This document shows positions 19,010 to 21,198 of a stretch of DNA of 64,000 bases, one piece after another. Position numbers and translations under genes: made by a program. The notes beneath the pieces were generated by a model. It did no database searches, was not told where the DNA came from, and saw only the letters and a program-made list of their open reading frames with translations. This DNA comes from Methanocaldococcus sp. 16A. Lineage in GTDB: Archaea; AGJL01; Methanococci; Methanococcales; Methanocaldococcaceae. Location: the NCBI GenBank assembly GCA_049860595.1, contig CP187551.1; one strand, 5' to 3'. Numbering within the stretch: the first letter of the stretch is position 1; the number at the start of each line of letters is the position of its first letter.

Positions 19010-21037
19010 TTATAAGTTAATTTTTTCAATCTTTACGGCACATGCTTTAAGCTCTGGAATCTTACATAGCTCATCTAATGAAGTATTAGTCAATAAATTA
19101 GGATTTGCTTCAACAAAGTGGAATGGCATAAATACTACTCCTTTTTTGATATCTTCAGTAATTTTTGCCTTTACAATTAACTCTCCTCTTCTTGAACTAA
19201 CCTTTATTAAATCTCCATCTCTAATTTTTAGTAATTTGGCATCATCAGGATTTATCTCTATGAAGGGCTCATTAATCTCTTCAACTAAATTTCTACTTCT
19301 TCTTGTCATTGTTCCTGTATGGTAATGAAAAATAATCCTACCTGTGGTTAAGATGAATGGATAATCTTTATTAGGTAATTCAGCTATTTCTCTATACTCA
19401 ACAGGAAATATTTTTCCTCTACCATTATCTGTTAAAAATCTATCTCTATACAAAATTTTTGTCCCTACATAATTTTCATCCAAACAAGGCCAGTGAATTC
19501 CTCCAGTTTTTAATCTATTATAAGTTATTCCTCTATATTGAGGAACAGTTATTCTAATCTCATTGAATATGTCTTCAGCCATATTATAGTTGAATTTATA
19601 TTTATAATCAAGTTTTTCAGCCAATTTTTTAATTATTATCCAATCTTCTAAAGCTTTTCCTGGTGGATCTATAGCTTTTCTTATTAATTGAACTCTTCTA
19701 TCAGTATTTGTAAATGTTCCATCTTTCTCTGCCCAACATGCAGCTGGCAACACTATATCTGCCAATTCAGCTGTTTCAGTTAAGAATATATCCTGAACTA
19801 CTAAAAAATCTAAGCTTTTTAATGCCTTTTCAACATGCTTAACATCTGGGTCTGAAACCATTGGATTCTCTCCAACAATATATAAAGATTTAATTTCTCT
19901 TCCAGCCTTTTCAATCATTTCTGGTATAGTTAAACCAGGATTTGGATTTAAATCAGTTCTCCAATACTCTTCAAATAATTTATAGCTATCTTCAACTTTC
20001 TGATAGCCAGGAAATACATTTGGCAAAGCTCCCATATCACAAGCTCCTTGGACATTATTCTGCCCTCTTAATGGATTAACTCCAGCTCCTTCTTTACCAA
20101 TATTTCCTGTTATCATAGCTAAATTACATAATGCTTTAACAGCATCAACACCATGTGTAAATTGAGTAACTCCCATACAGTATATTATAGATGCCTTCTC
20201 AGCATTTCCATAAATTTTGGCACTCTCAATTATTAGCTCTTTATCAACTCCGCATATTTTTGAGGCATACTCTGGATTATATTTTTCAACAACCTCTTTT
20301 AATTTCTCAAAGTTTTCAGTTCTATTTTTTATAAATTCTTCATCTATCAATCCTTCTTTTATAATTACATGAATCATGGCATTTATTAAAGCTACATTTG
20401 TCCCAGGAATTATTTGAAGATATATATCAGAGTTTTTTGCAGTCATTGTTTTTCTTGGGTCAATAACAATAATCTTCGCCCCTTTATCTTTAGCTCGCAT
20501 TATTCTTCTTGCAATTAATGGATGTTGTTCAAAAGTATTAGAGCCAATTATCAATATGCAATCTGCTTTTTCTATATCTTCTATAGTGTTTGTCATAGCA
20601 CCAGACCCGAAGCATGCACTCATTCCAGTAACAGTTGCTGAGTGTCAAAGCCTTGCACAATGGTCAATATTGTTTGTCTTTAAAACAACTCTTGCAAATT
20701 TTTGTAAAATGTAGTTGTCTTCATTTGTGCATCTTGCAGATGAGAAAAAGCCAATTTCATCTCTATAGGCCTTTAAATATTCTGCTATTATGTTTAGTGC
20801 TTTATTCCAAGTAGTTTCAACAAAACCACTTTCTTTTTTTATCAATGGCTTTGTTAATCTATCTTTGCTATGTATAAATTGATAACAATAATTTCCTTTA
20901 GCACACAACTTTCCCTCGTTTATTGGATGCCTTTTGTTAGGATGAACACCAACAACTCTATTATTTTTAACTATTAAACCTAAACCACAACCAACACCAC
21001 AATAAGGGCATATAGTATTTACAATCTTAAATTCCAT
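19010..21037 (-). CDS. fdhA: Formate dehydrogenase alpha subunit, selenocysteine-containing (Sec131, UGA at 20645-20647)
   Basis: The two ORF-track pieces are one frame: CPYCGVGC...C, then [27 protein letters not shown]; Mo/W-bisPGD motifs [27 protein letters not shown] 21037 after GGTGA. Confidence 0.95.
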
Positions 21038-21085
21038 GGTTTCACCTATTTTTTTATATTTTGGTGCATGCTTCGGGTCTTTTTT

Positions 21086-21120
21086 CGCCACCTGCTCCTA
21101 AAAAGGTTCGCAGGGTGGCG
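21086..21120 (-). promoter_or_regulatory. Archaeal SECIS element upstream (5') of fdhA
   Basis: mRNA CGCCAC(C)CUGC-GAA-CCU-UUUU-AGG-A-GCAGGUGGCG: GC-rich stem, GAA/A internal loop, short apical stem. Confidence 0.92.
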
Positions 21121-21198
21121 GGTGCTATGACATAAATAATTCAATAAAATAGAGTCATTTTTAACTAAAATTTTTAAATTTTAATTTAAAATTGATTA

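Follow-up and report, generated by a model that had tools for sequence, protein, structure and literature searches.

The closest described relative of the element discussed here is the selenocysteine insertion sequence (SECIS) in the 5' untranslated region (UTR) of fdhA1 from M. maripaludis JJ. A reporter has shown that this 5' SECIS directs selenocysteine (Sec) insertion in vivo, and the 7 bases flanking it on the 5' side and the 10 on the 3' side are complementary to the downstream open reading frame (ORF); a duplex of the two would place the SECIS 43 nucleotides (nt) 3' of the UGA (PMC11881835, RNA Biol 2025;22:1-13). Such ORF-complementary flanks are conserved in Methanococcales and are longer in the thermophiles Methanothermococcus, Methanotorris and Methanocaldococcus; their lengths were derived from minimum free energy (MFE) folds with a transcription start assumed 300 nt upstream, and M. 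voltae has neither the 5' SECIS nor the flanks (PMC11881835). What does this arrangement look like in a single long-armed leader? And what could it be for? Both questions are taken up here for the leader of fdhA (formate dehydrogenase alpha) in Methanocaldococcus sp. 16A, within a stretch of 64,000 nt of contig CP187551.1 (GCA_049860595.1). This whole stretch is called the window, all coordinates without a locus label are positions in it, and the fdhA mRNA is read from its minus strand. A sequence-only reading of this DNA had described the leader as clamped to the codons past the UGA and had believed such a tether to be undescribed. That belief was mistaken: the accessible text of PMC11881835 reports the flanks for Methanococcales, with those of Methanocaldococcus among the longest. 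The clamp is already known and this window is one more instance of it. Beyond that text, the present analysis adds a formal covariation test, the predicted stability at 85-95 °C, two genomes with a whole small gene between leader and fdhA, and the finding that two 3'-UTR SECIS elements in this genome lack flanks of this kind. The accessible portions of a 2026 review (PMC13188914) do not mention the flanks, and those of PMC11097638 hold nothing on the fdhA leader.

When its TGA is read as Sec (U), fdhA translates as a single open frame of 675 amino acids (aa), stop included, at 19010-21037 (-), with the ATG at 21037 and U131 at 20647-20645. The product matches the Pfam families Molybdop_Fe4S4, Molybdopterin and Molydop_binding, the three molybdopterin-oxidoreductase domains expected of FdhA. 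The same in-frame TGA (codon 131, 20645-20647, -) is present in 27 orthologous loci, and the residue aligned to U131 is Cys in six archaeal homologues from outside the Methanococcales. The leader, all of it on the minus strand, carries in 5' to 3' order a 5' arm (UGUCAUAGCACC, 21121-21132), a 35-nt SECIS hairpin (21086-21120), a linker of five A residues (A5, 21081-21085), which would form a single-stranded strand of the predicted junction, and a 3' arm (AGACCCGAAGCAUGCAC, 21064-21080). An inverted-repeat search found both arms to be 100% complementary to coding sequence: the 17 nt of the 3' arm to 20603-20619 (17/17) and the 12 nt of the 5' arm to 20591-20602 (12/12). The two targets are contiguous and make up one 29-nt coding stretch, 20619-20591 (-), which covers nt +28 to +56 from the U of the UGA and codons 140-149. 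The duplex begins 25 nt past the UGA and the junction falls between 20603 and 20602, 42-43 nt after 20645. Is this complementarity more than chance? None of 300 composition-preserving flank shuffles matched the 17-nt arm, with G-U pairs allowed, and 10 of 300 matched the 12-nt arm alone, so the non-randomness of the latter rests on its contiguity with the other target and on its conservation. The positions and sequences given by the sequence-only reading all hold in the window sequence, and its SECIS, its two arms, their contiguous coding target and the geometry of a three-way junction are borne out by sequence and predicted fold.

The hairpin itself has the features of a methanogen-type SECIS. 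In the MFE structure it reads CGCCACC-C-UGC-GAA-CCU-UUUU-AGG-A-GCA-GGUGGCG (21120-21086), with an asymmetric internal loop that sets GAA on the 5' strand against a single A and is bounded by G-C pairs. The hairpin occupies nt 49-83 before the ATG of an ORF with an in-frame UGA at the Sec position. Across the 24 loci of alignment A2, 9 of the 12 pairs of the consensus structure covary, and the covariance model R1 scored the hairpin at 58.3 bits as its sole match in the whole 64-kb window. Rfam at gathering thresholds gave no match anywhere in the window, so the SECIS is not caught by any curated family in that scan. Two close relatives depart in detail: the apical loop is 12 nt larger in L004 (3570-3622, -), and CAA replaces GAA in the internal loop of L005 (1410-1450, +), a variant that has been reported for M. 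vulcanius and found to be less active (PMC11881835).

How stable would the clamp be at the temperatures of a hyperthermophile? When 20560-21140 (-) is folded, the MFE structure contains all 29 pairs, at -161.1 kcal/mol (z = -6.2 against 100 dinucleotide shuffles). ViennaRNA keeps 29 of 29 pairs in the MFE at 37, 65, 80, 85 and 95 °C, so the helix that the sequence-only reading proposed to look for by folding at high temperature is predicted across the range. At 85 °C the pairs of the 3' arm have a mean probability of 0.94 and those of the 5' arm 0.92. In these predicted folds the sequence following the UGA pairs with the leader and not with itself, and the helix encloses a loop of ~440 nt that contains the ribosome binding site (RBS) and the first 130 codons. 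The RBS, a Shine-Dalgarno-like GGUGA (21042-21046, -) 4 nt before the ATG, is unpaired in the 85 °C MFE structure, as had been anticipated. Among the orthologues the duplex energy of the arms runs from about -57 kcal/mol (L001) to about -30 kcal/mol (L021-L024) and follows the IVYWREL fraction of FdhA, a protein-composition proxy for thermophily that stands in for growth temperatures (Spearman rho -0.82, n = 24, with kin not independent). By this proxy the clamp is stronger in thermophiles, in agreement with the temperature trend described in PMC11881835.

A search of 40 Methanococcales genomes yielded 27 loci with a full-length fdhA and an in-frame TGA (L001-L027); 10 of the 40 genomes have no match at E <= 1e-50, and two hold Cys-type homologues alone, 37-39% identical. 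In 24 of the 27 loci (L001-L024) there is an upstream SECIS (GAA/A, or CAA/A in L005) whose flanks are complementary to the same coding stretch. The register is constant and the junction sits at an identical codon boundary, while the letters change on both sides. In L001 the 3' arm AGACCCGAAGCAUGCAC faces GUGCAUGCUUCGGGUCU; in L005 AGAUCCGAAGCACGCA faces UGCGUGCUUCGGAUCU; in L016, L018 and L020 CCAAAAGUUUCCC faces GGGAAGCUUUUGG with one G-U pair. In L006 GACCCAAAGGCUUCCC faces GGGAAGCCUUUGGGUC and the protein has GEAFGS in place of SACFGS, the leader arm changing along with the protein. The GAAAAAAGA context around the A5 linker is common to L001-L015 (alignment A1).

For the covariation test, the 24 regions were aligned with MAFFT (A1) and the 29 pairs of L001 imposed on them. 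The controls were a 3' partner slid sideways by 1-3 columns, and 500 shuffles; the sequences are related, the structure is taken from one of them, and kin can beat shuffles without structure. Paired cells make up 82.1% of 694, a column-wise count that understates pairing in L017 and L021-L024, whose register is displaced by a bulge or a small internal loop, against 29.4-44.5% for the slid partners and 73.9 ± 0.7% for the shuffles, none of which reached it. Double-change cells number 56, against 2-11 slid and 17.7 ± 3.8 shuffled (0/500 reaching), and the covariation score of 0.246 exceeds both the slid range (0.038-0.077) and the shuffled value (0.105; 0/500 reaching). Pairs changed on both sides are 11 of 29, against 1-6 slid, a value reached by 26 of 500 shuffles. 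Further pair types number 22, against 10-17 slid, and are not above the shuffles (410/500 reach). The core of the 3'-arm helix is 91% paired over the 24 loci, and both partners have changed in 8 of its 14 pairs. Of the 5' arm, the inner GCACC alone pairs universally; in most orthologues the pairing goes no more than 0-4 nt beyond it, and the six outermost positions find partners in none but the closest relatives, L001-L004. Where the third positions of Phe, Gly and Ala codons change, the leader changes to match (columns 98/938, 95/941 and 27/950). The Gly codon GGU at 20600-20602 (+15 from Sec) has a third base that pairs with an invariant leader A and is itself invariant in 24 of 24 loci; beyond the target, 1 of 21 comparable four-fold codons behaves likewise. 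This suggests a synonymous constraint from leader pairing. In all, 17 distinct target and 20 distinct leader haplotypes still pair. A comparison of G-U with A-C mismatch cells, as a strand test, gave 21 versus 34 overall and 14 versus 16 in the core. The search for compensatory changes among orthologues, proposed on the strength of the one sequence, thus came out positive, synonymous third positions included. Since 24 of 27 loci keep the arrangement with compensatory changes above the slid and shuffled controls, the pairing is maintained by selection.

Two of the 24 loci extend the arrangement. In L009 and L011, which belong to different genera, the SECIS and its arms lie 440-460 nt upstream of fdhA with a 118-aa ORF in between, and ~800 nt separate the SECIS from the UGA. 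As the leader arms still match the fdhA target across this ORF, the clamp appears to tolerate ~800 nt and a translated cistron within its loop. The 118-aa ORF (L009:3544-3900, -, with its counterpart in L011) is conserved and has no Pfam match; a homologue lies outside the window at G000:C1:232903-233253. Its homologues occur in 15 of the 40 genomes, mostly directly upstream of a shorter FdhA-like gene without the TGA. At a guess that shorter gene is FwdB-like, and the 118-aa protein appears to be a small partner of enzymes of this family.

Other Sec-type loci have no such leader. No upstream SECIS lies within 1.5 kb in L025-L027, where model R1 gave none that was convincing even with its filters off. 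Nor did R1 find one within ~800 nt upstream of seven second Sec-fdhA copies, all from one genus (L111-L117). The methods of a 2023 paper (J Biol Chem) place the fdh2 SECIS within ~600 bp upstream, a range in which R1 found none in these copies. A weak SECIS-like match, the best that R1 gave in these loci, is present inside the second-copy ORF, ~105 nt past the UGA, in L111, L112 and L113 (2180-2227, -), with 13.1 bits and E 0.28 (10.1 bits in L113), and is absent from that place in L114-L116. In L111 a G-U-rich match of 21 nt lies 300 nt upstream; with no SECIS beside it and no conservation in L113, it was judged to be chance. In the genome that carries the window, model R1 found two further SECIS elements, one 3' of a HesB-like gene and the other 3' of a SelD-like gene, both for selenoproteins. 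Being trained on fdhA, the model found just these 2 of the genome's other SECIS elements, and in both (2/2 examined) the complementarity of the flanks to the ORF is not above the shuffle null.

Is the whole leader transcribed? Contigs from RNA runs of a relative that is ~89% alike span the coding sequence, the RBS, the 3' arm and the SECIS continuously, and one of them, X3 (window 21128), additionally covers its own 5' arm and 11 nt beyond. Contig X2 stops exactly at the first SECIS base (21120), followed by Illumina adapter; X3, from the same study, goes 19 nt further upstream. The end of X2 may reflect processing of the RNA, arrest of the reverse transcriptase at the stable hairpin or an accident of assembly. 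These RNA runs are Logan contigs of relatives that contain ~5% of the words and cannot define starts, and run X1 yielded none for this region, so they are weak evidence on how far the leader is transcribed. Run X6 has an RNA contig, at a depth of ~9, that joins 20865 and 21128 on opposite strands, away from the arm/target pairing, and may be a chimera. A scan of the A/T-rich upstream regions with a TATA consensus found no consistent box, and a literature search for MJ1353 returned nothing relevant on its transcription start.

An A/T-rich spacer separates the 5' arm from the stop of the upstream gene, and an A-rich spacer separates the 3' arm from GGUGA. The upstream neighbour is a beta-carbonic-anhydrase-like gene (21199-21648, -), and a carbonic anhydrase beside an enzyme of CO2 and formate may be a functional pairing. 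Downstream lies an NAD synthase gene (18196-19029, -), whose longest ORF overlaps the fdhA stop; fdhB is not adjacent to fdhA here. The idea that a 5' SECIS is needed because fdhB overlaps the 3' end of fdhA was ruled out, as the next gene is NAD synthase.

What might the clamp do for decoding of the UGA? In the proposed mechanism the SECIS flanks of the leader would pair with the contiguous 29-nt coding stretch and form a three-way junction, in which the helices of the 3' and 5' arms could stack along the continuous coding strand. The SECIS would project between nt +44 and +45, with no linker on its 5' side and the A5 linker on its 3' side. With the UGA in the A site, the leading edge of the ribosome would still be short of the helix, which starts at +28, so that the SECIS and whatever factor reads it would be held within reach of the decoding ribosome. 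This proximity would make Sec insertion more efficient relative to termination. Every ribosome would melt the helix in passing, and the helix would re-form behind it for the next one. Put this way, the clamp would assist without being indispensable, and its strength would scale with growth temperature. That the junction keeps the SECIS near the UGA-decoding ribosome and aids Sec insertion is the reading preferred here, with a probability of roughly 55%. The sequence-only reading saw the leader as a guide that places the SECIS by the UGA; of this the geometry stands, and the function is weakened, as the reporter worked equally well with non-complementary flanks (PMC11881835). Its mention of a SECIS/SelB complex was an assumption, given that the archaeal SECIS-binding factor is unknown according to PMC11881835. 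Nor does the geometry imply the ribosome pausing at the UGA that it suggested, since the helix would be met some codons after the UGA has been decoded.

Several observations weigh against a role of the clamp in Sec insertion. A strong effect of the tether is contradicted chiefly by the published reporter. In the M. maripaludis beta-lactamase reporter, activity was 405 ± 75 mU/mg with complementary flanks and 385 ± 77 mU/mg with non-complementary ones, without significant difference, and the reporter mRNA was ~3-fold lower with complementary flanks (PMC11881835). Activity per mRNA was ~2-fold higher with complementary flanks, an effect that appears only after mRNA normalisation. The authors infer that Sec insertion in their system can do without positioning, and they describe Methanopyrus kandleri as having a 5'-UTR SECIS without flanks (PMC11881835). 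Sec-type fdhA may be able to work without the clamp altogether, because L025-L027 and the seven second copies have no 5' SECIS that R1 could find. Some transcripts may lack the 5' arm, given the end of contig X2 at the first SECIS base. The evidence for the RNA structure is folding prediction throughout. Within the covariation test two of the five measures are weak (both-side changes, 26/500; further pair types, 410/500), related sequences can beat shuffles without any structure, and the comparison of G-U with A-C mismatches is uninformative on selection at the level of the sense-strand RNA.

If not positioning, what else could have selected for the pairing? It might act mainly on mRNA fate or translation rate, either as the target of a double-strand-specific RNase that degrades fdhA mRNA not cleared by ribosomes, or by throttling the flow of ribosomes across the recoding region. 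The helix would close a ~440-nt loop around the RBS and the first 130 codons, the 3-fold drop in mRNA is the sole significant effect of complementary flanks in the reporter, and double-strand-specific RNases are raised as a possibility by the authors themselves (PMC11881835); but any duplex would do for control of decay, activity per mRNA rose instead of falling, and a constant target just past the UGA with the SECIS exactly at the junction in 24 loci is left unexplained. An effect on mRNA fate or translation rate in place of positioning is on balance unlikely. A different proposal is that the arms merely stabilise the fold of a SECIS with a GAA/A motif, set in an A/U-rich leader at high temperature, the location of their partner being incidental. 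Arm strength does rise with the thermophily proxy and with growth temperature, and SECIS activity depends on the stability of the motif region (PMC11881835). Flanks that pair with each other would be a simpler way to achieve this, yet a distant and fixed coding site is used, it is kept across an inserted gene with ~800 nt from SECIS to UGA (L009, L011), and the 3'-UTR SECIS elements of this hyperthermophile do without a clamp, all of which makes stabilisation alone improbable. Finally, could the repeat be a relic, or a feature of the DNA without RNA function? Gene conversion between short inverted repeats, or an inverted duplication by which the SECIS reached the leader, would account for a perfect inverted repeat in DNA, and the G-U and A-C counts give no sign of strand-specific RNA selection. 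A relic would not explain why the 17 target and 20 leader haplotypes still pair or why 11 of 29 pairs have changed on both sides, and L016-L024 keep their pairing through bulges and G-U pairs, not through identity. Arms of 5-17 nt are also very short for gene conversion, and an origin of this kind is very improbable. Fixed target position and covariation are the main evidence against these rivals.

A bolder form of the positioning idea deserves mention. In hyperthermophilic Methanocaldococcus the 29-bp clamp might be an obligatory, temperature-scaled part of recoding, such that at or above 80 °C a 5' SECIS works only when tethered, even across an upstream cistron as in L009 and L011. This is doubtful, though worth stating for what would follow. 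The mesophile reporter, run at 37 °C with flanks of the 7 + 10 nt type and the strongest SECIS variant, would have missed the requirement, and archaea would have an RNA-guided delivery of recoding elements that could be used in the design of selenoprotein genes. On the preferred reading of a non-essential positioning helper, the fdhA leader is the one natural case in which an mRNA seems to solve the distance between SECIS and ribosome by base pairing. The covariation indicates that evolution keeps a pairing which the mesophile reporter did not need; it sharpens the published puzzle and opens no new one. For annotation, the clamp is a reliable signature of a 5' SECIS and of Sec-type fdhA in Methanococcales.

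How, then, does this leader compare with known systems? The 5'-UTR SECIS of fdhA1 in Methanococcales is the same case: the same gene family, ORF-complementary flanks and a placement at ~43 nt, with the 12 + 17 nt found here at the long end and the 7 + 10 nt of M. maripaludis JJ as counterpart (PMC11881835). The canonical 3'-UTR SECIS of methanogens shares the hairpin architecture and the GAA/A kink-turn-like motif, but the HesB-like and SelD-like genes of the same genome carry theirs 3' of the ORF and, unlike fdhA, without flank complementarity (2/2). The bacterial SECIS within the ORF (fdhF/fdhA), bound by the C-terminal extension of SelB, has a similar effective geometry, with the hairpin a few tens of nt 3' of the UGA; there it is encoded directly 3' of the UGA, whereas here it would be brought to that place by intramolecular pairing. 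The bacterial hairpin is also nearer to the UGA than the junction at +44/45. Among 80 distant homologues of FdhA (50-58% identical, mostly with bacterial names), 63 have an in-frame stop at the residue aligned to U131, which is taken to be a Sec UGA. Outside selenoproteins, -1 frameshifting in luteoviruses and readthrough in tombusviruses also use a distant element that base-pairs just 3' of the recoding site, as proposed for fdhA; those elements are 3'-proximal, act over kilobases and are required for recoding. In contrast to these viral elements, that of the fdhA clamp is 5' and cellular, and a reporter could apparently do without the clamp.

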